In this document: positions 6,364-64,000 of the stretch, in pieces
Numbering within the stretch: the first letter of the stretch is position 1
Layout of the letters: every line of letters starts with the position of its first letter
Virus record (IMG/VR): IMGVR_UViG_3300021429_002604
Span: 63,439-127,438 of that record
DNA: 64,000 bases
Origin: a virus
Direction: 5' to 3' (one strand)
Program-made: the position numbers and the translations under genes
The notes under the pieces: generated by a model
Databases searched by the model: none
What the model was told of the DNA's origin: nothing
The model's input: only the letters and a program-made list of their open reading frames with translations

Positions 6364-7065
6364 ATGCCAAGTGAAAAAACCTACCTTGGTAGAGTGGTTG
6401 ATATTAAAGATCCACTTTATCAAGGAAGAGCTAAAATTGATGTTTTTGGTTTCTTTGATGAGATTCCTGTCGAGGATCTTCCCTGGGCCGAGCAGATTGC
6501 TGGTATGTCCTTTGGAGCAGGCTTTGGTGGTGGAAACATCACCATTCCCAGAGTTGGTTCCATAGTTGCTGTTCATTTTGAGGAAAATAACTATTATAAG
6601 ATTAATTATCATTACATCAAGGAGTTTTCACAGGACCTCCAGGAGGAGCTGAAAAAAGAAAACTCTTATGAAGGTACTCATGCTTTAATTTATGATGGCG
6701 AGGCCCAACCAGGGCTTCTTAAGATGATATACACCAGAAGCAATGGTTTAGTTTTTCAGCTGGGGGATGCTACGATACAACTTGATACCCAGAACGCTGG
6801 AACCGATAAGGAGAAGCTCAGAATCAAGATAAAAATGAATGATGATGAGATCCGAATGGAAAAAAGCGGTGGTAAGCAGAAGGTCATTGTAAAATCCGAA
6901 AATATAGAACTCGGCGAGGGAGCGGTTGAGAAGGTTATCCTCGGTAACAAGTTTCTACAATTATATAATCAGCACACGCACCCAACCGGTGTTGGACCAT
7001 CGGGTGTTCCGATAGTTCCGATGGTGGATCCTCAGCACTTAAGTCAAGTATCTAAAACTAAATAA
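6364..7065 (+). CDS. Baseplate central spike (gp5/gpV-like OB-fold, C-terminal HxH apex)
   Basis: N-terminal YLGRVVDIKDPLYQGRAKIDVFG...LPWA matches the gp5 OB-fold pattern. C-terminal HTHPTGVGPSGVP is the metal-binding apex motif of gpV/gp138-type spikes. Confidence 0.8.
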   Translation: MPSEKTYLGRVVDIKDPLYQGRAKIDVFGFFDEIPVEDLPWAEQIAGMSFGAGFGGGNITIPRVGSIVAVHFEENNYYKINYHYIKEFSQDLQEELKKENSYEGTHALIYDGEAQPGLLKMIYTRSNGLVFQLGDATIQLDTQNAGTDKEKLRIKIKMNDDEIRMEKSGGKQKVIVKSENIELGEGAVEKVILGNKFLQLYNQHTHPTGVGPSGVPIVPMVDPQHLSQVSKTK

Positions 7066-7067
7066 CG

Positions 7068-8867
7068 ATGCCAGCAAATTGGGGAACATTCATAACTAAT
7101 GTTAGTAGCAAATTAACGTCTCAGTCTATTGGATCATACGATGAGATGGCAGACTTTCTTAGAAACGAATATATTTCTGCGACTGTTGGTAAAGCTGCAT
7201 CTCCATATGGTCAAACCCACGTAAAGGGACAGGATGCCATTATGTACGAGGGATTTAAGAAAGGATTTAAAATGCTCTACGAAGGCGGTGATCTAACATT
7301 CGAGGAGAAGAAAACAAATCCAGCATACGCTGATCTTGAGGTTGAACCGCCCACGGTGGATATATCAGGAGCTGCTGATCAAGTTGAATTAGATTTTAGA
7401 GATTGGGCTGAGGAGAACAAAGCAACAATACCAGATTTTGTATATTCACAATTCTTTTCCCAATACCCAGGATTTCCTAAGGATAGAAAGCAAGCAGCAC
7501 TCGAGATTGCCAGAAAGATATTGCATCAGTTTGACGGAACCGGATCATATCTCCAATGGATGTATTCATTAAGAACCGGTCCATATAGCGACTGGGGAAA
7601 CCTAATAATGGATGAAGTTATTAAGCTGATAAATATTGAGGCTAAGAGAGAATTTCAACCAGGAGATCTTGTTAGAGGATTTGCTAAATATAAAAATATT
7701 GATACTATCGCTGTGACTAAAACCAGTAGGAGCGATAAAGATTATACAGTGGTTCCTCTTGGTAGTCCTTATAACGGGATCTGGAATACAGAATACCGAT
7801 ACGGAAACGACGTTTTCAATTATTTGAAAGGTGACACTAATATAGATAACATTTCTTCGCTTAACTCAGGAAATCGGAACGATTCCGAATTGATTGAGGG
7901 TAAGGTTGTTTCGGTATCTTCTGTAAAGGGGAATAGTAGTATAAAGGTATCCTTTTATAACAAGAATGTAAAGAAGTACTTTGTAAAGGAACTGATTCCT
8001 AGCACAGTATCAAGAAAACTTAATATCTCGGATATAACCGGGAAATTGCCTGCTATAAATATAACGAGGGAGCTTTTTCAGGATCAACACTTAAGTAATC
8101 CTAATAAGATCCCTGATTATCTAACCTCAAGTTTTATAAGACATTTCACATATTCTAAAAGATACGATGCTGGATATCTTAAGCAATGGTTAAAATATTA
8201 TGGAAGTTGGTCGGATAGCGTTATTGATAATATAAGTAAAAGCTTTGACGATTCTTACAGTTATGCTGATGATATAGTAAATATCTTTTCTAGAGACGGA
8301 TTCAAGAACACTTCATTTTTCCGGAAAAATGCTAATATTTTTAATACCAACTCTGGATTTCAATTATCAATTATTAAGCAGAGACTTGATTTTAATAAGT
8401 CTGTCGAGTATGATACCGAAGAAAATAGATTTAGAGAACTCAAGATTAGATGGATAAATGAGTTGGCTGATGCCGCTAGAAAAAACTCAGATCCTGATAA
8501 ACCGGAGGATCCCTACAATGTTATGGCCAAGGGCGTTCTTGATTATTGGAAATCATGTGCTCAACAACCCCTTACAAATGAGCCAGGTGCCCCGCCTTGC
8601 TTATTTGCACCTCCTCAGGGTGGACTTTACGCTCCGATTTATTATGGTAGTCAAACAATGCTCGGTAATAATATAAAAAGAGCTTTCAATACGGGAAAAA
8701 GATTCAGTCGGGCACCAGAAAAACAGATTGCAGCAAAGCTAGTTGCATCTGCCCTAGCATATTCTTTTGGTATGCATTTATTAGAACTTAAATTTATCTA
8801 TCGTGGTGGTATACCTGGGGCTAATGGCCCAATACCTATGATAGGTTTTATCCCTCTAGTTTATTAA
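7068..8867 (+). CDS. Hypothetical protein (baseplate module)
   Basis: 599-aa ORF starting 2 nt after the spike gene; no family recognised. Confidence 0.5.
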   Translation: MPANWGTFITNVSSKLTSQSIGSYDEMADFLRNEYISATVGKAASPYGQTHVKGQDAIMYEGFKKGFKMLYEGGDLTFEEKKTNPAYADLEVEPPTVDISGAADQVELDFRDWAEENKATIPDFVYSQFFSQYPGFPKDRKQAALEIARKILHQFDGTGSYLQWMYSLRTGPYSDWGNLIMDEVIKLINIEAKREFQPGDLVRGFAKYKNIDTIAVTKTSRSDKDYTVVPLGSPYNGIWNTEYRYGNDVFNYLKGDTNIDNISSLNSGNRNDSELIEGKVVSVSSVKGNSSIKVSFYNKNVKKYFVKELIPSTVSRKLNISDITGKLPAINITRELFQDQHLSNPNKIPDYLTSSFIRHFTYSKRYDAGYLKQWLKYYGSWSDSVIDNISKSFDDSYSYADDIVNIFSRDGFKNTSFFRKNANIFNTNSGFQLSIIKQRLDFNKSVEYDTEENRFRELKIRWINELADAARKNSDPDKPEDPYNVMAKGVLDYWKSCAQQPLTNEPGAPPCLFAPPQGGLYAPIYYGSQTMLGNNIKRAFNTGKRFSRAPEKQIAAKLVASALAYSFGMHLLELKFIYRGGIPGANGPIPMIGFIPLVY

Positions 8868-8901
8868 CAAAAAAAGTTCATTGCAAAGGAACTTAAGATG
8901 G

Positions 8902-8909
8902 GATATATA
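8902..8909 (+). promoter_or_regulatory. GATATATA putative late-promoter motif
   Basis: Intergenic, 43 nt before the S1 gene ATG; one of 8 upstream copies. Confidence 0.5.
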
Positions 8910-8952
8910 GTATAATAACGATACTTTTAATCACCTTTAAACTAAAAAAAAT

Positions 8953-10113
8953 ATGAATTCCAATTCTTTCGACGATTTTAACTGGGATCTTCCTAATGGA
9001 CTAACAATCAACAAGAAAATCAAAGGTTCTGAGGGACACAAGGTTTATTGCCACGAGCCATATGCTCAGGAGTTAGCAGATCTCTATTTTAAATCCTATG
9101 CAAATTTAGAAATTGGGTCTAAGGACTTAGTTGATGGTTCAGTATATCTTTGCAAAATAGTTCATTTGAAGGAAGACGAAGCATTAGCTCAAACCAATTC
9201 TGGTCAAACCATCTACATCGATCTTAAAAAAGAGAGAAGAGATGCTGAAAAATTAAACTTAATCAACCTAACATTTAACCCAGGCGAAGAAGTTAACGCT
9301 AGAGTAAGAAAAAATAACGGTAACTATACAGGATCTGTTATTGAATATTACATCCACAGCCTGAGAGTTGAACTTTTTGAACAAATCAAAAAAGAAAGCA
9401 GCGCATATAGAATAAAAATAGTTAGCGTGAATAAAGGTGGATACATTGCCGAATTATCGGGTATCAAATGTTTCCTTCCTGGATCACTAGCAGCAGCTAA
9501 TAAAATCACCGATTTTGAATCATACATCGGAAAAGAAATGCACGTTATGATCGAGGGTTATGTTGAATCGAAAGACATATTCATCGTTTCCTATAAGAAA
9601 TACCTTAATAAGATCATGGATTCTAAAATCCAAGAACTTGATCTTACCAAAAAATACAAAGGGTATGTTACAGGGACAAGCGACTTCGGTGTGTTTGTAG
9701 AATGGGACAGTGTTTACACTGGTCTTATTCACAAAACAGAATTCCCTGATGATAATACGCTAACCATGATTTCTCCTGGATCAGAAATTGAATTCTATGT
9801 GAAGGAGATCAAGGATAATAACAGATTAACCCTTACATTGGATAAGCCATTGGAAAGAAATGTTATTATACAGGAAATAGAGAACCAAGTGAAAGAAGGA
9901 ACTTGTGAACCATTACCAGCTAAGGTTAAACATAGAAGAAAGAATGGCGCTTTAGTTGAAATTCCACAATATGGTCTTATGGCCTTAATACCTCAGGATA
10001 GACTTGGGAAGAAGGGGAGCAACATCAAAACAGGAGACGATGTGACAATCGTTCCTTATGAGGTTGATGTTACCTCTGGAAAAATATATGTTGAACTTGT
10101 AAATGTCGGATAA
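8953..10113 (+). CDS. Multi-S1-domain RNA-binding protein (ribosomal protein bS1-like)
   Basis: Repeated S1 signatures: KIVSVNKGGYIAELSGIKCFLPGS, GYVTGTSDFGVFVEWDSVYTGLIHKTE, AKVKHRRKNGALVEI...ALIP. Confidence 0.8.
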   Translation: MNSNSFDDFNWDLPNGLTINKKIKGSEGHKVYCHEPYAQELADLYFKSYANLEIGSKDLVDGSVYLCKIVHLKEDEALAQTNSGQTIYIDLKKERRDAEKLNLINLTFNPGEEVNARVRKNNGNYTGSVIEYYIHSLRVELFEQIKKESSAYRIKIVSVNKGGYIAELSGIKCFLPGSLAAANKITDFESYIGKEMHVMIEGYVESKDIFIVSYKKYLNKIMDSKIQELDLTKKYKGYVTGTSDFGVFVEWDSVYTGLIHKTEFPDDNTLTMISPGSEIEFYVKEIKDNNRLTLTLDKPLERNVIIQEIENQVKEGTCEPLPAKVKHRRKNGALVEIPQYGLMALIPQDRLGKKGSNIKTGDDVTIVPYEVDVTSGKIYVELVNVG

Positions 10114-11509
10114 TAGAACACATTTTGATAAGATTAATGCTCTTGACTCATCAGTAATAGGATTTGAATTTGAGTTTTACACTAACCTGTTAAAGGGTCA
10201 AGCTGCCGAGTCATTGGGTAAGCTTATCAAAAAGAAAGTTATAGTTTCCGAAAAATACCATTCAAAAATACCGGTAGACGCCAACAATTTTAAGCTAGAA
10301 CCAGATTACTCAGGTGGTAGCAAAATGATGGAGCTTATTACCGGACCTCTTGCATACAGCGAGGCTATGCCGATTCTTATCAAAATTCTAAATTGGATTG
10401 ATGAGAATGGGTGGACTAGTGATAGATGCGCATTCCAATTTTCAGTAAGTTTTGATAAGTCCAGAAGAGACGTAAAGGACAAAATAGAAAACCTGGATAA
10501 GCTTAAGTTTGTCTTGGGACTTGACGAGGGATTTATCTACTCAAGATTTGGTAGCAGAGAAAAGAATGTATATGCCAAATCCATCAAAAAAGTTGTGCCT
10601 AGGAACAGATACTCGATATTGGAGAATATCCAATCGATAGATCCGAAAATGTATCGTGTACCTGAAGATAAGTACTATGGTGTGAACTTCACAAAAACAC
10701 CAAAGGGGTATATCGAATTCAGATATCTAGGAAACAGAGATTATCAGAAGAAAACCAAAGAAATCAGAGAGGTAATAGATTACATTATCTTATACCTCTA
10801 TGATATATTAAGCCACAGAATAAAGGGGTATACAAAAGACGACCTAGCGGTACTTCAGAAAATGATGGACAAATATGCAAAGGTAGTAAGATGTTTCACT
10901 AATCCTGATTTCTTCTTTAGAAATTACCCAGATTTCCACATCTTCGTTGATCTTAAGGGATGGGACGAAAACATAAAAACATATTTTCCCATCATTAGGG
11001 ATAAGGTATTTGACCTGATTATAGAGGGAAATATCACATCATGTTATTTCAACTACGATACTGCAACTGGTAGATACCAGGTAAAGGAAGCCAGATGCAG
11101 AAATGCTTTCGAAATTGACGGGATGGATTTAATCCTTTGTGATATTAAAAATGCTATTATTAGAAATTGCAACATCTACAATTCTGACATAAAAAAATCA
11201 TCGATAGAAGATTCTTATATTTTCGCAGGTACCAAGGTGACTTCATCAAAAATTAAGTCAACCATAGTGGATTTCTCAAACGAACTTAAAGATTGCTTTA
11301 TCGACTGCCAGGGCAAGAATATTAATTGCAAAATCGAAGGTGGGGTATTAAGAGCTGGTAACATTGGTGAAAATGCAGAGATTAGCAAGGAAACAATGAA
11401 AGTTAAAAACTTAGAAGACCAGAGGATGGTTAGATTCGTTACTGACAAGAGATTAAAGGATCTTAATGATAGATACAATAATCAGAGATTCGGTAATATG
11501 AATTATTAA
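10103..11509 (+). CDS. Putative amidoligase (glutamine-synthetase-like COOH-NH2 ligase) with C-terminal repeat region
   Basis: GFEFEF, EPDYSGG..MELITGPL, KYYGVNF and YIEFRY motifs. The C-terminus has short I/S/N-rich repeats suggestive of a beta-helix. Overlaps the S1 gene by 11 nt. Confidence 0.6.
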   Translation: MSDNRTHFDKINALDSSVIGFEFEFYTNLLKGQAAESLGKLIKKKVIVSEKYHSKIPVDANNFKLEPDYSGGSKMMELITGPLAYSEAMPILIKILNWIDENGWTSDRCAFQFSVSFDKSRRDVKDKIENLDKLKFVLGLDEGFIYSRFGSREKNVYAKSIKKVVPRNRYSILENIQSIDPKMYRVPEDKYYGVNFTKTPKGYIEFRYLGNRDYQKKTKEIREVIDYIILYLYDILSHRIKGYTKDDLAVLQKMMDKYAKVVRCFTNPDFFFRNYPDFHIFVDLKGWDENIKTYFPIIRDKVFDLIIEGNITSCYFNYDTATGRYQVKEARCRNAFEIDGMDLILCDIKNAIIRNCNIYNSDIKKSSIEDSYIFAGTKVTSSKIKSTIVDFSNELKDCFIDCQGKNINCKIEGGVLRAGNIGENAEISKETMKVKNLEDQRMVRFVTDKRLKDLNDRYNNQRFGNMNY

Positions 11510-11523
11510 AAAAACCAAGAAGC

Positions 11524-12300
11524 ATGACACAAGATGAGTTAATACAGGAAATACAAGATGCCCTTTCTTTTAGCTGTGCATTACCTTACAACTTAAATGC
11601 AACAGAAACTGAGAGAATTATCAAAAGAGCTAAAGCTTGGTTTTATGATAACTATCAGTATGCTGTAGAGGAAAGAGTGTTCGTTTTAGCAAACAATCTT
11701 TTCCAGCACCAAGAATTTAAAAGAACTAGACAGATCAGACTTCCTGAATCTATCATAGGAGTATATGAAGTTAGAGAACTTGGTGGATATGGACTCTCTG
11801 GTAATCCTGATAGGGATTTTGGTGACTCAAAGCTCCTTGGATCTGAACTACTTCTATCGCCATTCGTAGGGGATAACTTAGTTTATAGAACAGTGATGTA
11901 TTCATATTTCGATTTGGCCAAAGCTTATCTACTCAACACATATGCTTTTAAATACAATAAAAACACGAAATTCTTAACCATTCTTGGTAGAGATCCTAAC
12001 CGATCAGGTAAAGGTCAATTAGCACAGGGATTTAATGGTGGTGGTGTTGATGTTTCTGTAAGATGCCACGTGGCAATACTCGACGAATACTTATATGACG
12101 ATGAACTTTTTGTTAGATATTGTATAGCAAAATGTAAAATAGCGCTTTCACAGATGTTAAGCGTCTTCACATACAACCTTCCTGGTGGGGTTCAAATAAA
12201 CGCCAGCGAAATAGGAACTCAGGGAGCCACAGAGCTACAGGAAGTGATGGATATGATCAATGGCGAGAATACCCCATCTTATTTCCTTCAATGGAATTAA
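11524..12300 (+). CDS. Neck/head-completion protein (T4 gp13-like)
   Basis: C-terminal YNLPGGVQINASEI...ELQEV resembles the LPGGV motif of gp13-type neck proteins. Confidence 0.65.
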   Translation: MTQDELIQEIQDALSFSCALPYNLNATETERIIKRAKAWFYDNYQYAVEERVFVLANNLFQHQEFKRTRQIRLPESIIGVYEVRELGGYGLSGNPDRDFGDSKLLGSELLLSPFVGDNLVYRTVMYSYFDLAKAYLLNTYAFKYNKNTKFLTILGRDPNRSGKGQLAQGFNGGGVDVSVRCHVAILDEYLYDDELFVRYCIAKCKIALSQMLSVFTYNLPGGVQINASEIGTQGATELQEVMDMINGENTPSYFLQWN

Positions 12301-12304
12301 TCTC

Positions 12305-12312
12305 GATATATA
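12305..12312 (+). promoter_or_regulatory. GATATATA putative late-promoter motif
   Basis: Intergenic, 19 nt before the gp25-like ATG. Confidence 0.55.
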
Positions 12313-12331
12313 ATGGGAAATTAATTTTTCC

Positions 12332-12703
12332 ATGAGAGAGATTTACAATAGAGACCCATTAGATCCGGATTACAATCCTTATCAATTAGAGACCACAGAT
12401 CCTACTGAGATCTGCGTCGGTCAACTTAAAATGCTGCTACTTACTAATAAGGGCGAGGTTTTAGGCGATCCCAAATTTGGTTTAAATATAGAGGATCTTG
12501 TATTTAATCTCGAGCTCTCAGAAACAAGCATAAGGAAAGAACTGGATCTTGCACTTAATGTGTATGTTCCGCTGTTTTCTTTGCTTGGTGGAACTTATGA
12601 ACTTCAATTTTACGTGGGGACTTTAAGGGATATCGCTACTTTGGATTTTAAAATACCAGAGGACGGAAAACTTAGCCCACTGGTATCGCTAAGACTAACA
12701 TAA
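12332..12703 (+). CDS. Baseplate wedge / sheath initiator (gp25-like)
   Basis: 123 aa with LLLTNKGEVLGDPKFGLNIEDLVF, the typical gp25/GPW pattern; precedes the gp6-like gene. Confidence 0.8.
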   Translation: MREIYNRDPLDPDYNPYQLETTDPTEICVGQLKMLLLTNKGEVLGDPKFGLNIEDLVFNLELSETSIRKELDLALNVYVPLFSLLGGTYELQFYVGTLRDIATLDFKIPEDGKLSPLVSLRLT

Positions 12704-12712
12704 AAAAAGGAA

Positions 12713-14437
12713 ATGAATATATTTAAGAAAAATAACATTCTTATTAACGGTCTTCTAGGAGACACGTTTAATTTTTTGCAGGCAACCTATAATCAAACAT
12801 CGAATGTTTTTACTGTTGCCTCCGCTTGGGGACAAATCTTATTTGTTCTACAAAATCTTTCCCAGCTTATATTATATTTCATTGAGGATTCGATCACCGA
12901 GTTAAATATGCAGGAAGCAACCAGAGACTATTCTGTTAGAAGTTTAGCTAGAATTGCTGGTTATGATCCTGGACGTGCTAGCGCAGCTCAAGGTGAGGTT
13001 TCTATATCATGGAACACCAGAGAGGGTGATGTTGGTGGTGGATCGGTTATACTCAAAAATTACTCCCAGATCAGATGCCAGCAAAATGGTAAATTATACT
13101 CTCTGATATTTGGAAGTCCAGAAGTAACTATCCCCTTAGTTAGAGGGAATTCATTGAGAGTAAAAGTTGCTCAGGGAACTTTTGAAAGCGCGATAGTCAC
13201 CGGTAATGGTCTGGCACTTCAAAGTTTTAATCTTCCTTCCAGCTCAGGTATTCTATTGGATCAATTTTATGTTGATGTGTATGTTAATGAGGAAAAATGG
13301 AGAAGATATGATTCGCTCTATGATATACCATTAAACGGTAAGGGATACTTGGTTAGAACAGGAATACAAGAGGGACTGGATGTTTATTTCGGTAACTCCA
13401 ATTTTGGTATGGTTCCTCAGAGAGGATCAAGAATAAGAATAGAATATTTACAGACATCCGGCACTGGCGGAAATACAAACTCAACTAAAGAAAACCCACT
13501 TACTTATAAATTTTCCAGTAACGGAACAGATCTATTTGGATCGGAGGTTGATGTTAACCTTTATCTTGATATTAAGAATCAAATAGATCCATCATTTGGT
13601 ACAAACCCAGAGACCACCAACCTAATTAGATTGGTTGCTCCTAAGACTAGTAGATCTTTCGTTTTTGCTAATGCTGATAACTACGAGGTGTTCCTGAATA
13701 AATTGGGAATATTTTCTCAGATACAAGCTTTCTCAACTTTCGACGATGATTACTTAGATGATGATAACGTTGTTTACATATATCTGGTTCCTGACATCAC
13801 TTTGAATCTATCGAGTAACGAAGATTATTTTAGTGTTCCGGTTTCAGACTTTCTTTTAACTGCTCCACAAAAGGCCAGAGTTGTAAATCTGATCGAACAA
13901 TCAGGATCTATGATCGCAACCACGGTGATAAAAATAGTTCAGCCCGTTATAACCAGATATGTTACTAATGTCGTTCTTGGTATTTTCGAAGGATCTGACC
14001 CTGAGACAATTAAACAGTCCATAAGAAAAAGAATTTCTGAATATATGTTATCCTTGAAAAGAAGGGATAAAATACCAAAATCTGATTTCATAGCAATAAT
14101 AGAAAGCGTACCTGGAGTAGACACAGTATCTTTCTTCTTCGTCGGCCAAAAAAATGAGGAGAATCAGATAGCAATTAAAAACTTGACTAATGTTTCCCAA
14201 GCACAATTGGACGAGACTATAGGGATGGACCAGTTTGGTGATATTATTATAGGAAGAAATGAACTTGTACTATTGAGAGGTGGGTGGACAGACAGAAACG
14301 GAACATTCTATACTGAATCCGTTGTTGATGGAAAACCAGGGCCTCTTAATATAACCGTTGCATCCATTGTTCCTAGAAATTTTAGAAGTGAATTAAATGC
14401 TAGTCTAAAGTCACAAATAATAGCTCAAGGCTCATAA
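12713..14437 (+). CDS. Baseplate wedge protein (gp6/baseplate J-like)
   Basis: SVRSLARIAGYDPGRASAA, VYFGNSNFGMVPQRGSRIRIEYLQTSGTGGN and the position after gp25. Confidence 0.75.
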   Translation: MNIFKKNNILINGLLGDTFNFLQATYNQTSNVFTVASAWGQILFVLQNLSQLILYFIEDSITELNMQEATRDYSVRSLARIAGYDPGRASAAQGEVSISWNTREGDVGGGSVILKNYSQIRCQQNGKLYSLIFGSPEVTIPLVRGNSLRVKVAQGTFESAIVTGNGLALQSFNLPSSSGILLDQFYVDVYVNEEKWRRYDSLYDIPLNGKGYLVRTGIQEGLDVYFGNSNFGMVPQRGSRIRIEYLQTSGTGGNTNSTKENPLTYKFSSNGTDLFGSEVDVNLYLDIKNQIDPSFGTNPETTNLIRLVAPKTSRSFVFANADNYEVFLNKLGIFSQIQAFSTFDDDYLDDDNVVYIYLVPDITLNLSSNEDYFSVPVSDFLLTAPQKARVVNLIEQSGSMIATTVIKIVQPVITRYVTNVVLGIFEGSDPETIKQSIRKRISEYMLSLKRRDKIPKSDFIAIIESVPGVDTVSFFFVGQKNEENQIAIKNLTNVSQAQLDETIGMDQFGDIIIGRNELVLLRGGWTDRNGTFYTESVVDGKPGPLNITVASIVPRNFRSELNASLKSQIIAQGS

Positions 14438-57147: not shown

Positions 57148-57155
57148 GATATATA
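57148..57155 (+). promoter_or_regulatory. GATATATA putative late-promoter motif
   Basis: After uvsW, 18 nt before the ATG at 57174. Confidence 0.55.
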
Positions 57156-57173: not shown

Positions 57174-57719
57174 ATGAATATTAAATCCTTTAACGATTTT
57201 ATTGGCGAAAATTTGACAGAAAGCGAAGTTTATGGTACTGAAGGTAAAACCAAATTCAGTAGATGGCTAAGAAATGTAAATAGTCGTGTAAAAGACTCCA
57301 TGGGTGATAGTTATTATTCAAAGTATTATGATGACCATAATGACCCATACAAAACAATGAATCAGATCTCCAATATAATTCCAGGAGCTGTTAGATTGGT
57401 TACTGGTGCAGCTGCAGCTTTATCTGATTTCTTTTTCAAGGGTAATAATAAAGATGATTTTTCCAAACTTTCTAAGGAGGATCTAAAAACCAAAAAGAAA
57501 GAGGTTGTTGATAAATGGGACAATGATAACATAGCTTCCAAAGATATTACCGAGGCAGATGCTGAGAAATTCTACAAATCTGGAGTTCTGAAGGGTAAAA
57601 GATACTTCGGTAAAGAATACGATCCGGCTAATCCTAAGAACAAGGAAGAGGAGATGTACACGGATTACGTTAATGATGTGATGGAGAGATACCATAAAAA
57701 AATCAAAAAGAATGCATAA
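57174..57719 (+). CDS. Hypothetical protein with capsid-targeting-like N-terminus
   Basis: Starts MNIKSFNDFIGENLTE; preceded by GATATATA. Confidence 0.55.
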   Translation: MNIKSFNDFIGENLTESEVYGTEGKTKFSRWLRNVNSRVKDSMGDSYYSKYYDDHNDPYKTMNQISNIIPGAVRLVTGAAAALSDFFFKGNNKDDFSKLSKEDLKTKKKEVVDKWDNDNIASKDITEADAEKFYKSGVLKGKRYFGKEYDPANPKNKEEEMYTDYVNDVMERYHKKIKKNA

Positions 57720-58647
57720 TAGTAGAGTATTAAATTTTTCTGGATTTGCTATACTATTAGAGGGTGGTGCTGCTATTAAGACATCGAGAAGAATCAGGGA
57801 GGATGAATTCCCAAAAACTCTTGATAATATAAAGCAGATTCTTTTCCCTATTCTTTCAATTGATCCGACAAAGACCAATCAGCAGTACATTATAATAGGA
57901 AGCATTGGCAAGAAGAAGAATCCTGAGGACACGTCAGGTGATCTTGATTTGGGGTATGACAGCTCATGGTTTGCTAGGGAGCATAATATAACAGTTAAAG
58001 ATGTTTCTGCCTTTACGTACGACCTTCTCACTGAAAAATTATCGGATGCATTAGGATTCCAGCCGGAAATAGCATTTTTAAAAGGATTAAATATAGTTAG
58101 TGTCGGATGGCCAGTTGAAGGTGACGTTACTAAGGGTATAGTTCAGTTAGACCTTATACCGATCTCAAGTATGGAGTGGGCAGAATTTATTTATTATTCA
58201 CCCAACTATAAAATAGGTGAGAGTAAGTATAAATCAGCTCATAGAAACTGGTTATTAGCTGCTATACTAGCCGCAAGAAGAGAAGTTATAGGTAACGATG
58301 AGAACGGGGAAATAATGGATTATAACTCGCCTGTATTGATTCTTAGTGATGGTCTATTCTGGCACACTAAGTCATATAGAGGTAAATTAAAATCTAGATT
58401 GAAGAATCCAAAAAAGATTGAAGGTAGTGAAAGATTCGTTACCAGAGATCCACAGGAATTTGTAGATTTTGCTTTGGGAAGGGGATATACTCCGAATGAC
58501 GTTAAAACGTTTGAAGCTTTGTTAAATATTATAAAATCTCCGGATTTTGAGTTAAACCAGAATCTTCCGGAAATTAAGGATAAGTTTATGGAATATCTAA
58601 CTAGAGCTAATCTAGAGATACCTACCGAAATAAATCAGATATCTTAA
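57712..58647 (+). CDS. Pol-beta superfamily nucleotidyltransferase-like protein
   Basis: IIGS...SGDLDL (GS and DxD) with a candidate third Asp in VQLDLIP. Confidence 0.6.
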   Translation: MHNSRVLNFSGFAILLEGGAAIKTSRRIREDEFPKTLDNIKQILFPILSIDPTKTNQQYIIIGSIGKKKNPEDTSGDLDLGYDSSWFAREHNITVKDVSAFTYDLLTEKLSDALGFQPEIAFLKGLNIVSVGWPVEGDVTKGIVQLDLIPISSMEWAEFIYYSPNYKIGESKYKSAHRNWLLAAILAARREVIGNDENGEIMDYNSPVLILSDGLFWHTKSYRGKLKSRLKNPKKIEGSERFVTRDPQEFVDFALGRGYTPNDVKTFEALLNIIKSPDFELNQNLPEIKDKFMEYLTRANLEIPTEINQIS

Positions 58648-58670
58648 GTATAACAGTAAAGAATTTAGAT

Positions 58671-60734
58671 ATGTCAGGAATAAGTCATTTATATGATATT
58701 TACAACAAGAAGGGTAAAGATTTTATTAATAATCTCTTTAACTCCTATGTGACCGTTAATGAAAAGATGGATGGATCCGCTTTTGTGTTTGACCGGGATT
58801 TGGAAACTGGCAGATTTAATTTTTATAAAAGAGATCAAAGGAATCCTATTACTCTAGTTGATAGAACTCTTATGAAATATTACGAGATTCCGATCCAATA
58901 TATTGAATCATTGCCACCTCATATAATAAAGGATCTACCTAGAGGATGGAAATTTGGACTCGAGTATTTTGCAAATATAAAACCTGTTGAGATTGCATAT
59001 GATAGATTACCTAAGAATAATCTTATTCTTTCATATGTTCACACTAAGAGCGAAAATGGGAAACCATCGTCCACTATACAGGATAAGGAAAAACTTGATA
59101 CGTGGGCAGATTTATTAGGGGTTGAAAGACCACCGATAGTTTTCCAAGGGTATTTAAGCGAAGAGCAGAAGGATAAAATATTAGACTTTCTAAGAACACC
59201 GTTCGAAGAACTTGTCAGCGAATATAAAACCAGAAGCTTTGTTCGTTATATTATAGGTGTACTTAACCCGGAAGCTCAAGCTAGTGCTTTAAATAACGAC
59301 CTGGATAAACCGATCGAGGGTATAGTTTTCAGATTCGGCGAGGAAGATATCGAATCTGAACCGGTACTTTCCAAGATGGTAGATCCGGTATTCACTGAAA
59401 TGGCTAAAGAGAAATCAAAGAAAAAAATAGAGGAAAAACCTAGTGATTTCTTGGGCATAACCATATTGGATGCGATGAACTTTATACTGGAGAGAGGCGT
59501 TGATAGCTTTGGTGTTAGCGGAAACACTGATGACGAGAGATATATTTCATTCATATCGGATGTTTTTTCCAAATTCCTTGAAGAATATGGATACAAATAC
59601 AAAGGTGCGGATTTTCAAGAACCTGACTATTTAAAGAAGGACGAATTTAGATTAAATAAACCACTCATAAAAGATAAAAGAGTATTGAGTTACCTTGATG
59701 CCGATGATTCGTATGAGTCACTATTTAAACTAATACTAAATTCGTTCAGGAAGATAAAGAAAAGAGCAGGCGGTATTATCACTGCCGGTATAATTGATCA
59801 ATTCAATTTATTGGTTGGAGATATACAAGGAGTTGTATCAGCTAAGTCTACCCCAAAAATACAGGAATCGCAAGTTCCTTCATTCCTTGACTTTAAGAAG
59901 AATAATCTATCCGCAAAAACTATAGACTATACAACTTCTGAGAACGAAGAATCCGACAAAAGCGAGGAAGAATACGATCACTTCTATTCATACAATGAAT
60001 TCATCTCAGCTCTAGAAACTTTAGACACACAGGAGAAACCAAAAGAGATCATAACAGAGACCGATGAGAAAAAGGAGGAGGAACCTAAGGAGAAAGAACT
60101 ACAGGATGTGAATCTTTTAGTTGGTAGATTCCAGCCATTCCATAATGGACATCTGAATATGGTAAAGAAAATGGCAGAGGAGAACGAATTACCTAGTATT
60201 ATTGCGGTCGTACATCCTGGACATAATAGATCCGGTAAAACACCATTTGACGAGGATCTTGTTTCCAAATACATGGAAACAGTGGTTAAAGAAAATGCTG
60301 GCAAGATACTTGGTTATTTTATTATTAATAGAGGTCTTCTTGGAATCATTTACGGAAAGGCTAAAGAACTGGGATATTCGGTTAAATCTATTGCAGCTGG
60401 AGATGATAGAATAGACGACTATAAAAAACAAACGGAATATCTCAAGAAAGCTGGCGGAGATTTCCCTGACGACATCGAGATAATACAGACTCCAAGATCT
60501 AGTAGCGGAACTGAAGTTAGAGGGAAGATAGATAACGAGGACTTTGTGGGATTTAAAAAGTTGGTCCCGCATGCGGTTTCTACTTTTTATGATCAATTAG
60601 TTTCTTCCCAGAATGGAAGATCAATTAAAGAATCTGAAGCTGTGAATTTTCTAAACGAGTACGGCGACGAAAAAACCAGAGATGAAATAGAGAGCGAAAT
60701 AGCAGCTAAAGAAATTAAAAATAAAGAACAATAA
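58671..60734 (+). CDS. Fusion of an RNA-ligase-like domain and a HIGH-motif nucleotidyltransferase (NMNAT/cytidylyltransferase-like)
   Basis: Ligase motifs I (NEKMDGS), III (GLEYF), IV (IEGIVFR) and V (SKMVD); acidic linker; C-terminal VGRFQPFHNGH and SSGTEVR. Confidence 0.7.
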   Translation: MSGISHLYDIYNKKGKDFINNLFNSYVTVNEKMDGSAFVFDRDLETGRFNFYKRDQRNPITLVDRTLMKYYEIPIQYIESLPPHIIKDLPRGWKFGLEYFANIKPVEIAYDRLPKNNLILSYVHTKSENGKPSSTIQDKEKLDTWADLLGVERPPIVFQGYLSEEQKDKILDFLRTPFEELVSEYKTRSFVRYIIGVLNPEAQASALNNDLDKPIEGIVFRFGEEDIESEPVLSKMVDPVFTEMAKEKSKKKIEEKPSDFLGITILDAMNFILERGVDSFGVSGNTDDERYISFISDVFSKFLEEYGYKYKGADFQEPDYLKKDEFRLNKPLIKDKRVLSYLDADDSYESLFKLILNSFRKIKKRAGGIITAGIIDQFNLLVGDIQGVVSAKSTPKIQESQVPSFLDFKKNNLSAKTIDYTTSENEESDKSEEEYDHFYSYNEFISALETLDTQEKPKEIITETDEKKEEEPKEKELQDVNLLVGRFQPFHNGHLNMVKKMAEENELPSIIAVVHPGHNRSGKTPFDEDLVSKYMETVVKENAGKILGYFIINRGLLGIIYGKAKELGYSVKSIAAGDDRIDDYKKQTEYLKKAGGDFPDDIEIIQTPRSSSGTEVRGKIDNEDFVGFKKLVPHAVSTFYDQLVSSQNGRSIKESEAVNFLNEYGDEKTRDEIESEIAAKEIKNKEQ

Positions 60735-60737
60735 AAA

Positions 60738-61283
60738 ATGACAAAGATAGTTACATCGTTTGATCAGTTTATCAGCGGAATGAATGAATCCGATGGATTC
60801 GGAACATCACCCTTTCTATTAGAAAAATCCGGTGATGTATACCACTATTTCTTCAATATAGATCAGGAAAGCAGCGAAGACCAAATGGGCTTCCATCTAA
60901 TTGTTGGAAAATACTCTGATAATGAGGTTATCGAGGGACCTAAAAATTCATACTGTGTATTAACACTGAATCAGATTGCATCTGAGGTTATTGATGACAT
61001 CGCAGTGGATAAAGAGGAGATACCACAAACAAGCAAGGAGAAGTTCAAGATGGAAGGAAATGAGATATCCAGACTTATGGAATCCATATTCAAATGTGTT
61101 AATAGCTATCTTGAAGCAAACTCTAAGGTTGTCAGAATTTATGATGAGATGCAGGACAATTTAGAATTTGATGGCAAAGGGGAATATATGGAATATATGA
61201 AATCCATAGCTATATCTCAGCTTGGAGGCAATTGGTCAATTCAGCAAGGTGCCACTCAGAAGTCCATTATTATTAGTAGATAA
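60738..61283 (+). CDS. Hypothetical protein with capsid-targeting-like N-terminus
   Basis: Starts MTKIVTSFDQFISGMNE; acidic 181-aa product. Confidence 0.55.
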   Translation: MTKIVTSFDQFISGMNESDGFGTSPFLLEKSGDVYHYFFNIDQESSEDQMGFHLIVGKYSDNEVIEGPKNSYCVLTLNQIASEVIDDIAVDKEEIPQTSKEKFKMEGNEISRLMESIFKCVNSYLEANSKVVRIYDEMQDNLEFDGKGEYMEYMKSIAISQLGGNWSIQQGATQKSIIISR

Positions 61284-61307
61284 CGAAACAAATTAGTGAA
61301 TCCAATA

Positions 61308-61315
61308 TATAAATA
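61308..61315 (+). promoter_or_regulatory. TATAAATA (T4 late-promoter consensus)
   Basis: Exact match 22 nt upstream of the Hc1-like ATG; could be chance in AT-rich DNA. Confidence 0.35.
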
Positions 61316-61337: not shown

Positions 61338-61517
61338 ATGGAAAAATTCGAACAAATCAAGGCTCTTATCGAGCAAACCCAAGGAGACGCTGAAAAGTTT
61401 TTCAGCAAAGGGAACGGAACAGCTGGTACTAGACTTAGACAAGCTATGCAGGAGTTAAAAAAACTTGCTCAGGATCTTAGAATCGAAGTACAGGAAGCTA
61501 AGAATAATAAAGCTTAA
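61338..61517 (+). CDS. Hc1/histone-H1-like small protein (59 aa, below the ORF-track cutoff)
   Basis: Hand translation: MEKFEQIKALIEQTQGDAEKFFSKGNGTAGTRLRQAMQELKKLAQDLRIEVQEAKNNKA. The KF..KGN..AGTR.R..MQ.LK.LAQ..R pattern matches the Bacteroidota 'histone H1' family as recalled. Confidence 0.75.
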   Translation: MEKFEQIKALIEQTQGDAEKFFSKGNGTAGTRLRQAMQELKKLAQDLRIEVQEAKNNKA

Positions 61518-61778: not shown

Positions 61779-62007
61779 TCCTGCAGACACAAGCTCTTAT
61801 GTCCCGCCACAGTCACCCATAGCTATACAGCCAGGGGATACAGGATTCACTACTGTCGGCAAAGCCTACAATAGATTTATCTGGACATTTGGAGATTGGA
61901 ATAAACAGAAAAAGAAGATAATAAATCCCGATACCAATTGGGATCTAAATTCGAAACCCATGACTGATAAGGAATGGGAAAATAAGAAAAAGGACTTATA
62001 TTTATAA
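61747..62007 (+). CDS. Hypothetical protein
   Basis: 86 aa; overlaps the previous gene by 32 nt and ends inside a terminator hairpin. Confidence 0.45.
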   Translation: MTKKSTKTSSNPADTSSYVPPQSPIAIQPGDTGFTTVGKAYNRFIWTFGDWNKQKKKIINPDTNWDLNSKPMTDKEWENKKKDLYL

Positions 62008-62019
62008 GTCCTTTTTTTT
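61987..62019 (+). terminator. Probable (possibly bidirectional) intrinsic terminator
   Basis: AAAAAGGACTTATA-tt-TATAAGTCCTTTTTTTT perfect inverted repeat with a T tract. Confidence 0.7.
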
Positions 62020-62021
62020 GT

Positions 62022-62029
62022 GATATATA
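62022..62029 (+). promoter_or_regulatory. GATATATA putative late-promoter motif
   Basis: Immediately after the terminator hairpin, 4 nt before the CHAP gene ATG. Confidence 0.5.
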
Positions 62030-63189: not shown

Positions 63190-64000
63190 ATGGCTCAATT
63201 CCCATCCAACCCCCGAATAGGACAAGCTTTTCTTGCAGACTCTAATCTTTATGTTTGGAGTGGCTACCAGTGGATCGTTGCACAGGTGGGCGGTTCAGGG
63301 AATAGCTCAGCAGGTACATCGGGAACTAGTGGTGTTGATGGTAATTTCTACGGTTCCTCAGGATCTAGTGGAACGAGAGGATCCAGCGGAACATCGGGAA
63401 CACCTGGAACACCTGGTGGTGACGGTGAACCAGGATCAGCAGGAACATCAGGAATCAATGGGTCCAGCGGAACATCAGGATCAACAGGAACACCCGGATC
63501 TTCCGGATCAGCAGGAACATCAGGATCAACGGGAACACCAGGATCTTCCGGATCATCGGGAACCCAGGGATCTTCAGGAACATCTGGTTCTAATGGGTCT
63601 TCCGGAGTCAGTGGAGTGAATGGGGTCGATGGGTCTACAGGAACATCAGGAACTAGCGGAAGCTCCGGTGTAACCGGATCTGCTGGAACATCAGGATCTG
63701 CAGGGACATCGGGAGCAGTAGGATCACCGGGATCTGCTGGAACCTCAGGAACACCGGGATCTGCAGGAACATCTGGTTCTAATGGTTCTTCGGGAGTCAG
63801 CGGAGTCAACGGTGTTGATGGATCCTCTGGAACTAGTGGAAGCTCTGGTGTAACCGGATCTGCTGGAACTTCAGGATCTGCTGGATCTGCTGGAACCTCA
63901 GGAACACCAGGATCTGCAGGAACATCTGGTTCTAATGGTTCTTCAGGAGTCAGCGGAGTCAACGGTGTTGATGGATCCTCTGGAACTAGTGGAAGCTCTG
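63190..64000 (+). CDS. 5' part of a Ser/Thr-rich collagen-like fibre protein (runs off the window end; absent from the ORF track)
   Basis: ATG at 63190 gives MAQFPSNPRIGQAFLADSNLYVWSGYQWIVAQVGG, then near-continuous Gly-X-Y (GSS, GTS, GSA, GVD, GTP) with no stop up to 64000. Confidence 0.85.
   Translation, partial: MAQFPSNPRIGQAFLADSNLYVWSGYQWIVAQVGGSGNSSAGTSGTSGVDGNFYGSSGSSGTRGSSGTSGTPGTPGGDGEPGSAGTSGINGSSGTSGSTGTPGSSGSAGTSGSTGTPGSSGSSGTQGSSGTSGSNGSSGVSGVNGVDGSTGTSGTSGSSGVTGSAGTSGSAGTSGAVGSPGSAGTSGTPGSAGTSGSNGSSGVSGVNGVDGSSGTSGSSGVTGSAGTSGSAGSAGTSGTPGSAGTSGSNGSSGVSGVNGVDGSSGTSGSS
63577..64000 (+). repeat. Three related copies of a collagen-coding block (spacing 189 and 153 nt)
   Basis: tctggttctaatgg recurs at 63583, 63772 and 63925. 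The last two copies are nearly identical at DNA level. Confidence 0.85.

Follow-up and report, generated by a model that had tools for sequence, protein, structure and literature searches.

A possible late fill-and-seal repair cassette built around a ligase-HxGH fusion in a large freshwater phage

We analyzed a stretch of 64,000 nucleotides (hereafter, the window), which is the last 64 kb of the 127-kb viral contig IMGVR_UViG_3300021429_002604 from IMG/VR (completeness estimate, 46%). A gene cassette in this window encodes a nucleotidyltransferase of 311 amino acids and, just downstream, a protein of 687 amino acids in which a module similar to T4 RNA ligase 2 (Rnl2) is fused to an HxGH nucleotidyltransferase domain. 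This ligase-HxGH fusion is a real and widespread architecture that is apparently undescribed. As for the role of the cassette, we tentatively favor a late and probably head-loaded repair kit, centered on the Rnl2-like ligase, that is predicted to fill and seal broken nucleic acid. We consider this quite possible but would not yet rely on it.

Under this proposal, the late unit from 57148 to about 62019 would encode leader-tagged proteins, and its enzymatic core would fill and seal broken nucleic acid. The 311-amino-acid enzyme, a minimal nucleotidyltransferase that is similar to family-X polymerases and consists of just a palm and a thumb, would add one or a few nucleotides to a 3'-OH end. The Rnl2-like module (with K32 as the predicted AMP acceptor) would then seal the nick between the 3'-OH and the 5'-phosphate in a duplex. 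The ligase would be the hub, nearly always joined to an HxGH adenylyltransferase-like module that is either fused to it or encoded by the next gene. The tagged proteins would probably enter the prohead, be trimmed, and be injected with the DNA, and the fusion might be cut in its linker to give separate ligase and HxGH enzymes. We infer all of these activities, as well as the packaging, the cleavage and the type of substrate, which could be RNA, DNA or ribo-patched DNA.

The ligase-HxGH fusion

The predicted folds, the integrity of the motifs, the linkage statistics, the promoter-like element and the leader tags are what the analysis shows. A preliminary description of this DNA, made from the sequence alone, had pointed to three nucleotidyl-transfer chemistries in two adjacent genes. 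According to the list of open reading frames (ORFs) and their translations, its coordinates and motifs are all correct, and so are the 8-nucleotide overlap of the 311-amino-acid ORF with the preceding ORF (of 181 amino acids) and the 23-nucleotide gap from the stop codon of the 311-amino-acid ORF to the start of the 687-amino-acid ORF. The three folds, which come from predicted structures, hold up as well, with intact catalytic motifs. In the translation of the fusion, these motifs are EKMDGS (with K32), EGIVFR (residues 216-221) and SKMVDP (with K235) for the ligase and GRFQPFHNGH (485-494) and SGTEVR (612-617) for the HxGH enzyme, and both active sites are intact. The AlphaFold2 model of the fusion has a mean predicted local distance difference test (pLDDT) score of 85.1 and comprises two folded parts and a disordered acidic linker.

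Over residues 1-392, the best Foldseek matches were to full-length T4 RNA ligase 2 (2hvr and 2hvq; E = 1.8e-7 to 3e-7, 371-391 columns). This region includes an all-helical domain, which is part of the N-terminal module (residues 1-410) and is conserved in relatives. The match to the RNA_ligase family (PF09414; residues 26-222, E = 4.7e-4) scores 20.8 bits, which is under the gathering cut-off of 27 bits; two relatives pass this cut-off (P0244 with 29.3 bits and P0255 with 32.0 bits) and another, P0242, is at the cut-off (27.0 bits). In a set of 63 diverse relatives of this protein, all 63 have E31, 55 have K32, and 59 have K235; the motifs go beyond chance matches. We consider the assignment of residues 1-392 to a T4 RNA ligase 2-like module to be sound as a statement about the predicted fold. 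Enzymes of the RNA ligase 2 type are widespread in phages, and their natural substrates are still unclear. We also considered whether this module might be the replicative DNA ligase, and we rejected this because the genome encodes a separate ATP-dependent DNA ligase elsewhere (PF01068, C1:36606-37937). No LigA-type ligase was found in the genome.

The fusion family has 778 cluster representatives at 50% identity, including longer forms and forms with the N-terminal module only. We retrieved a diverse set of loci with three sub-family alignments (the A5 alignment yielded one locus) and scored their ORFs with hidden Markov models of the three modules, which gave 94 non-redundant loci. The ligase and HxGH modules were together in 92 of these loci: they were fused in 71 and were encoded by adjacent genes in 21 (once in the reversed order). 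In the other two loci, the contig ends too early. Four phages of 630-735 kb, the largest, have the ligase module alone. Given this pattern of linkage, the ligase looks like a hub with two facultative partners, the HxGH module and the polymerase-like enzyme that we describe below. A review of jumbo phages lists Rnl2-HNH, HIGH-Nudix and HIGH-kinase fusions, and the ligase-HxGH fusion is absent from the fusions that it lists (PMC7824862). This absence agrees with the earlier remark that the fusion was not recognized as a characterized enzyme.

Among the 44 relatives with both domains, 30 keep both K32 and H494, 7 lack K32 only, 6 lack H494 only, and 1 lacks both. All 19 of the forms with the N-terminal module only keep K32. 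Many relatives (in the set P0242-P0272, L128:6986-10363 and L160:6995-10204) have 870-1290 amino acids, with 300-600 extra residues after or between the modules, and these extra regions match no Pfam family.

The C-terminal domain matches PF01467 above its cut-off (E = 1.3e-5). According to VIA-align, the most similar structure is the nicotinamide mononucleotide (NMN) adenylyltransferase, or NMNAT, of M. jannaschii (1f9a; Z = 16.8, root-mean-square deviation 2.1 Å, 151 of 164 residues), and the next best are NadD (Z = 16.4) and PPAT (Z = 15.2). A phmmer search of the PDB also matched this domain to NMNAT (E = 1e-4), with an alignment that is gapped, and not conserved, over the region of the nicotinamide-binding pocket. 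Across the family, NMNAT models are the commonest matches from NCBIfam (27 of 63 members). Of the 44 members with this domain, 37 retain H494. We can safely describe the domain, as modeled, as an NMNAT-like HxGH nucleotidyltransferase.

The preliminary description had suggested that NAD regeneration was coupled to the ligase. If the HxGH domain truly acts as an NMN adenylyltransferase and restores NAD+ in the face of defenses that deplete it (as in a NARP2-type pathway with Nampt), then it might be fused to an unrelated ligase only for co-expression or co-delivery. The closest structures and sequences, which are archaeal NMNAT and NadM, would fit this explanation, and so would the NCBIfam matches and the intact HxGH and SGTEVR motifs. 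Phages are also known to have NAD+ synthesis systems that use HIGH enzymes (PMC7824862). Of the first 5 complete relatives, 3 have Nampt, and in three genomes of the window's clade (two of these and a third relative), the fusion is the sole PF01467 protein alongside Nampt. However, the curated NMNAT models match far under their cut-offs (33.5 vs. 127 bits for NF002243 and 29.5 vs. 181 bits for TIGR01527), and these matches are confined to residues 482-529, or about 45 residues around HxGH. PPAT is the first match of the HxGH family profile, PPAT and NadD are within 1.6 Z of the best structure, and the first histidine of HxGH is a histidine in just 19 of the 44 members. Nampt does not track the fusion either: in a second set of 21 records, it was present in 4 of 14 IMG/VR relatives and in 7 of 7 named phage records, and overall, it was present in 7 of the 19 fusion-bearing IMG/VR relatives that we searched and missing from the other 12. 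Three distant phages with the fusion (G006, G007 and LR756500) have an extra PF01467 gene that is 2-9 kb from Nampt. Finally, HxGH accompanies the ligase in 92 of 94 loci, which suggests that its role is tied to that of the ligase. These results weaken the case for NAD regeneration, and we consider this explanation of the fusion to be quite unlikely. NAD+ synthesis by the HxGH domain is possible, but since Nampt does not track the fusion, it is not what binds this domain to the ligase.

Nampt and a PF01467 gene are the usual pair for NAD+ salvage in phages. A Nampt-family gene lies about 2-10 kb from a separate PF01467 gene (of 225-388 amino acids) in G006, G007, LR756500, LR756502, LR756501 and Atu_ph07.

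What might the HxGH enzyme do for a ligase? One idea is that the two form a new two-enzyme unit, which would be delivered in the capsid along with a Pol-X-like filler. For example, the HxGH enzyme might supply the ligase, by synthesis or by recycling, with a dinucleotide that donates adenylate (NAD+ or an analogue), or it might reverse abortive 5'-adenylylated ends by pyrophosphorolysis. This is speculative and we think it rather unlikely. If it were true, the repair of breaks could be immediate, even in a cell whose pools of ATP and NAD are being drained by its defenses.

The polymerase-X-like enzyme

In the translation of the 311-amino-acid protein, the catalytic motifs are IGSIGKK (with G63-S64), GDLDLG (with D77 and D79) and VQLDLIP (with D147). 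These residues (G63, S64, D77, D79 and D147) are invariant across 37 relatives, at identities down to 48%. Beyond the third aspartate, D147, the segments YYSP (161-164) and YKSAHRNW (173-180) are also invariant, and the model has a helix at residues 175-187. By their positions, these segments presumably correspond to the YFTGS and helix N of Pol beta, which we take as a lead only. The AlphaFold2 model has a mean pLDDT of 89.8, with residues 1-18 below 50. Residues 1-17 form a disordered leader that ends with L-L-E, and an invariant GG is next.

In an exhaustive VIA-align comparison with solved structures, the top 8 matches were all family-X DNA polymerases, across both the palm and the thumb (Z = 8.6-9.1, 162-184 residues). 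They include Pol beta, Pol lambda, TdT, Thermus Pol X, and the Pol X of African swine fever virus (ASFV), for which 165 of 176 residues were aligned (Z = 8.9). The alignments span residues 22-268 of the model. For Pol beta, they extend over the palm-thumb construct (3lqc, residues 142-334), and for ASFV Pol X, over nearly the whole protein. Foldseek agrees weakly (Pol beta, E = 5e-3, probability 0.98). The fold begins directly with the palm, at about residue 20, and the 8-kDa and fingers (helix-hairpin-helix) domains are missing. Similar folds are common among the predicted structures of uncultured tailed phages in BFVD, and the best match with a name is a protein from Atu_ph07 (E = 4e-17). 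The sequence itself has no match in Pfam, PHROG or the PDB, and across the 37 members there is no match to Pfam at E values up to 1.

We considered several other identities for this enzyme. Terminal uridylyltransferases, CCA-adding enzymes, cGAS-like enzymes and MenT align over about 100 residues of the palm, with Z of 7.6 or less. The identities as a CCA-adding enzyme, poly(A) polymerase, cGAS/CD-NTase or MenT were rejected because the matches are to the palm only and have lower Z. Thus, the preliminary description was right to place this protein in the Pol-beta superfamily, but the CCA-adding-like or cyclase-like activities that it had raised do not fit, as the best matches are to the palm and thumb of family X. 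Overall, there is modest support, from the predicted structure, for a Pol-beta-superfamily enzyme with a palm and thumb like those of family-X DNA polymerases. Because the Z values are modest, we describe it as Pol-X-like and not as a member of the family.

Throughout the window's clade, the gene immediately 5' of the fusion is the polymerase-like gene, while LR756500 has the fusion without a polymerase-like gene nearby. Agrobacterium phage Atu_ph07, which is very distant, has homologues of both in the opposite order: that of the polymerase-like gene comes right after that of the ligase module (hmmsearch E = 8e-10, hhalign E = 2.4e-5). This pairing is an independent occurrence. So, of the linkage that was expected from the preliminary description, the association of ligase and HxGH (92 of 94 loci) stands, while that of the Pol-beta gene stands in part: it recurs in Atu_ph07 but is found in a minority of loci (26 of 94) and is missing from LR756500 and from the four largest phages.

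Two side observations concern these distant phages. In LR756500.1 (L041), a 421-amino-acid ORF (6704-7969) is directly upstream of the fusion. It has a tag-like start (MKFLKSYEEFLNENLILEGG) and the same LEGG as the 311-amino-acid enzyme, and it ends with SEGIVFVY, a sequence that recalls ligase motif IV. No Pfam family matches this ORF, and BLAST shows no similarity between it and the 311-amino-acid enzyme. In Atu_ph07 (L123, MF403008.1), 3' of the pair (6824-12831), there are at least 8 hypothetical genes in a head-to-tail run, each encoding about 250-360 amino acids, with overlapping stops and starts. The genes in this run that we scanned have no Pfam family.

Pol-beta enzymes such as RlaP are known to work with RNA ligases in RNA repair (PMC7824862; bioRxiv 10.64898/2025.12.29.696909). 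Pairs of an RNA ligase and RlaP (PF10127) are found in phages and bacteria and are frequent in jumbo phages (Burroughs and Aravind 2016, cited in PMC7824862; Carruthers et al., bioRxiv 10.64898/2025.12.29.696909). RlaP adds one or two nucleoside monophosphates to damaged 3' ends of RNA, and a helical C-terminal domain is described in its structure paper. By analogy, the cassette might be a cytoplasmic counter-defense that repairs tRNAs. Once a tRNA had been cut by a host anticodon nuclease and trimmed, the 311-amino-acid enzyme would put back the lost 3' nucleotides in a template-independent way, the Rnl2-like module would reseal the RNA, and packaging would play no part. This would be consistent with the frequency of RlaP-RNA-ligase pairs in jumbo phages, with the best match of the ligase being to an RNA ligase (and its family being PF09414), and with the recurrence of the ligase-nucleotidyltransferase adjacency in Atu_ph07. 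The complete relatives also have tRNA genes (2-39 in each), but the closest of them has just 2, and the window's own contig (46% complete) has 0. Furthermore, the RlaP model (PF10127) does not match the 311-amino-acid protein, and the thumb of this protein is mixed alpha/beta, like that of Pol X, instead of helical as in the RlaP structure paper. The annotations of the cassette genes include no polynucleotide kinase or phosphatase, although no search was aimed at these enzymes. A late-type promoter element would be odd for an early counter-defense unless the enzymes were pre-loaded. We consider tRNA repair to be possible, although we doubt it. More broadly, an anti-defense role for the cassette, as had been proposed in the preliminary description, is a plausible candidate reading.

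Transcription, leader tags and putative packaging

The first gene of the cassette is preceded by GATATATA, which is present at 8 positions in the window (8902, 12305, 22045, 28962, 42899, 51208, 57148 and 62022). All 8 copies are on the + strand and are 12-51 nucleotides upstream of a start codon. Seven of the 8 copies are fully intergenic (just 3.9% of the window is intergenic), and the other copy overlaps a stop codon by 2 nucleotides. The copies elsewhere precede structural genes and the CHAP lysin. Judging from where it occurs, GATATATA looks like this phage's late-promoter core. A likely terminator lies directly before the copy at 62022 (Table 1); the palindromic stem was reported on the minus strand, and the + strand reads the stem and then TTTTTTTT. 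The best explanation for this arrangement of sites is that 57148 to about 62019 would be one late transcription unit that is closed by the terminator.

Another candidate for the late element was the T4 late promoter, TATAAATA. It was rejected, as its 7 sites are mostly within genes and are not enriched. A lone intergenic copy of TATAAATA, at 61308-61315, is about 22 nucleotides upstream of a 59-amino-acid gene (61338-61517). In one run, the depth of contigs from an RNA library jumps at 61296, with values of about 9 before this position and about 51 after it. There may be a strong internal promoter near 61308, with the caveat that contig depth is a poor measure. In metatranscriptomes from four studies, there are contigs for parts of each of the four cassette genes, and one contig of 212 nucleotides bridges the junction between the nucleotidyltransferase and the ligase. 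Because metatranscriptome libraries can hold DNA, these contigs are no proof of expression.

Several proteins begin with a short tag, [FYW]x[DENQSGA][FYW] and then [ILVM]xE. This N-terminal pattern is found in 8 of 112 ORFs, while 1.9 were expected from the rate at internal positions. The tagged ORFs include the polymerase-like enzyme, both of the 181-amino-acid proteins that flank the two enzymes, and genes beside the prohead protease. In the polymerase-like enzyme, the P3 position is taken by L, I or V, and an invariant E at P1 is followed by the invariant GG. The start of the CHAP lysin (FAEFVFE) is of the same kind. The protease belongs to the T4 gp21 family (PF03420, C1:47352-49301). About 1.8 kb downstream of its gene, with one ORF of 573 amino acids in between, are three consecutive genes with tag-type starts (MKNIPSFNEFKK, MTLKFKEWEELNE and MLSFDEFRLTE); they are upstream of the window, at G000:C1:51148-53445, and likely encode scaffold, core or internal head proteins.

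In T4, proteins with a capsid-targeting sequence (CTS) are packed into the head and then injected (PMC9026906). The combination of short leaders that resemble the T4 CTS ([FY]xx[FY] and then [ILV]xE) with a gp21-type protease suggests that the tagged proteins are probably loaded into the prohead.

The fusion is untagged at its N terminus. Instead, its linker contains two tag-like helices, P403-SFLDFKK and F438-YSYNEFISALE (helices 405-413 and 441-449 in the model), and the first of these is preceded by an [ILV]xE site, I-Q-E399. A tag-like motif is present in the linker of 37 of the 44 family members, mostly directly after the ligase module. When the HxGH gene stands alone, it begins with its own tag and [ILV]xE site (for example, MDNLKNIQDFITE). 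This is what would be predicted for a targeting signal that acts on each polypeptide.

Several observations weigh against a head-loaded repair kit. First, the polymerase-like gene is within 7 kb of the fusion in 26 of the 94 loci, which leaves 68 loci where it is not, and in a Lak phage it is found alone, with no ligase nearby. Second, its likeness to polymerase X is purely structural and modest (Z of about 9, TM of about 0.3), and a best Z of 7-8 is common with this structure-comparison tool. Third, a helicase gene is upstream in 79 of 86 loci, and the whole region is collinear within this group of phages, so adjacency within the group is weak evidence. Fourth, either catalytic site can be lost alone in relatives, so the two chemistries need not be sequential. 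Also, the second tag in the linker lacks a canonical [ILV]xE site, and another reading of the tags is that they are peptides that bind a hub or a clamp.

Could it be that there is no functional unit at all? In that case, three unrelated enzymes would be neighbors because of the collinearity of these genomes, and the leaders would be ordinary, with no role in targeting. The region from the primase through UvsY and the helicase to the lysin is syntenic across all of the relatives, the nucleotidyltransferase is missing from most of the fusion-bearing loci, and the catalytic sites are lost separately, all of which would fit. On the other hand, the ligase and the HxGH module persist together through fusion, fission and a reversal of order, and the adjacency of the ligase and the nucleotidyltransferase arose independently in Atu_ph07. 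Furthermore, the split HxGH gene carries its own tag, and the N-terminal tags are enriched (8 observed vs. 1.9 expected). We consider the lack of any functional unit to be very unlikely.

Table 1. Features of the cassette, with positions in the window.
Feature	Position	Strand	Basis or context
GATATATA promoter-like element	57148-57155	+	19 nt upstream of the cassette's first gene
181-aa protein, N-terminal tag MNIKSFNDFIGENLTE	57174-57719	+	ORF list
311-aa Pol-beta-superfamily nucleotidyltransferase (Pol-X-like)	57712-58647	+	AlphaFold2 model, VIA-align, Foldseek
GS (residues 63-64) to DxD (residues 77-79) catalytic segment	57898-57948	+	Invariant in alignment
D147, Y161-Y162-S-P, and YKSAHRNW helix (173-180) opening the thumb	58150-58251	+	Invariant columns
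687-aa ligase-HxGH fusion	58671-60734	+	ORF list
Ligase nucleotidyltransferase domain, residues 1-238; EKMDG with K32, FGLEYF (motif III), EGIVFR (motif IV), K235 (motif V)	58671-59384	+	PF09414, Foldseek
All-helical domain after the ligase core, residues 239-392	59385-59846	+	AlphaFold2 helices 239-390, pLDDT mostly >85
Acidic disordered linker, residues 393-477	59847-60101	+	pLDDT <50
HxGH (HIGH) nucleotidyltransferase domain, residues 478-652; GRFQPFHNGH 485-494, SGTEVR 612-617	60102-60626	+	PF01467, VIA-align
181-aa protein, N-terminal tag MTKIVTSFDQFISGMNE	60738-61283	+	ORF list
Hairpin and run of eight T, likely terminator	61989-62019	+	Directly before GATATATA at 62022

The sequencing runs that contain this stretch are from river, lake and other freshwater metagenomes. 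The complete relatives are phages of 270-434 kb, some of which have direct terminal repeats. A DNA search of a phage collection for relatives found nothing beyond one match of 53 nucleotides, and thus no cultured relative. On the 5' side of the cassette are a primase, a weak UvsY-like match (PHROG, E = 0.008) and the helicase. The upstream 181-amino-acid protein has no Pfam or PHROG family, and it is syntenic among relatives in the clade. The downstream 181-amino-acid protein has no PHROG family and just a sub-threshold match in Pfam (DUF6272, E = 0.052); it has a homologue (cluster 4) on the 3' side of the fusion in 40 of 86 loci. In other phages, the neighbors that take the place of the nucleotidyltransferase (clusters 6, 8 and 9) have no Pfam family. 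In 33 of 86 loci, an ORF of about 147 amino acids, with a hydrophobic stretch and no Pfam family, is just upstream of the fusion (for example, L133:6520-6984), and 30 of these 33 loci lack the polymerase-like gene. At the end of the window, an ORF that is still open (63190-63999) has long collagen-like repeats of Gly-Ser/Thr.

Comparison with known systems

The cassette is a variation on the known repair pairs of an RNA ligase and a Pol-beta enzyme. As in the RNA ligase-RlaP pairs, a Pol-beta-superfamily gene is beside a 5'-phosphate RNA ligase, and the two would restore the end nucleotides and then seal. Unlike RlaP, the enzyme in the cassette does not match PF10127, and its thumb is Pol-X-like, where RlaP has a helical domain. 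Also, the ligase is joined to an HxGH enzyme, and the genes have a late-type promoter element and leader tags. With a minimal Pol-X-like partner, the "restore then seal" principle of RlaP systems would be taken further.

T4 RNA ligase 2 (gp24.1; 2hvq and 2hvr) is the best fold match across both the nucleotidyltransferase core and the helical C-terminal domain. The two ligases also share the E-K of motif I, the EG of motif IV and the lysine of motif V, although just one motif V lysine is evident in the fusion. They differ in that their identity is about 13%, the helical domain has about 150 residues instead of about 90, and the 687-amino-acid protein is below the Pfam cut-off and is fused to a second enzyme.

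The HxGH module shares its Rossmann fold (Z = 16.8, 23-24% identity), GRFQPFHxGH, and a second motif of the SxTxxR type with archaeal NMNAT (1f9a and 1ej2) and with phage NadM/NatV. In contrast to those enzymes, it has no Nudix or kinase partner, it fails the curated NMNAT models, and it is linked not to Nampt but to a ligase (92 of 94 loci). This large and uncharacterized ligase-HxGH family points to ligase biochemistry that has not been studied.

ASFV Pol X (5hr9) is also a minimal palm-thumb enzyme without the 8-kDa and fingers domains, and it too belongs to a viral pairing of a polymerase with a ligase that fills and seals. However, the likeness is structural only (Z = 8.9, 14% identity), the phage enzyme has an extra helical region at its C terminus (about residues 269-311), and its partner is an RNA-type ligase instead of a viral DNA ligase. 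A Pol-X-like partner would parallel the ASFV Pol X-ligase system and the ribo-patch repair by bacterial LigD.

The leaders resemble the T4 CTS (of IPI-III and Alt, with removal by gp21; PMC9026906) closely in position and in logic: both are short, N-terminal, and end at an [ILV]xE site, both go with a gp21-family protease, and in both cases the cargo, which is putative for the cassette, includes enzymes that are unrelated to the structure of the head. The window's clade has its own leader consensus, [KS]F[NDE][DE]F, and it has internal copies in the linker of the fusion, both of which differ from T4, and its packaging is a prediction. If the tags do load enzymes into the head, then jumbo phages of freshwater Bacteroidota-type hosts would inject a repair kit along with their DNA, and the known cargo of T4-like capsid targeting would be broadened.

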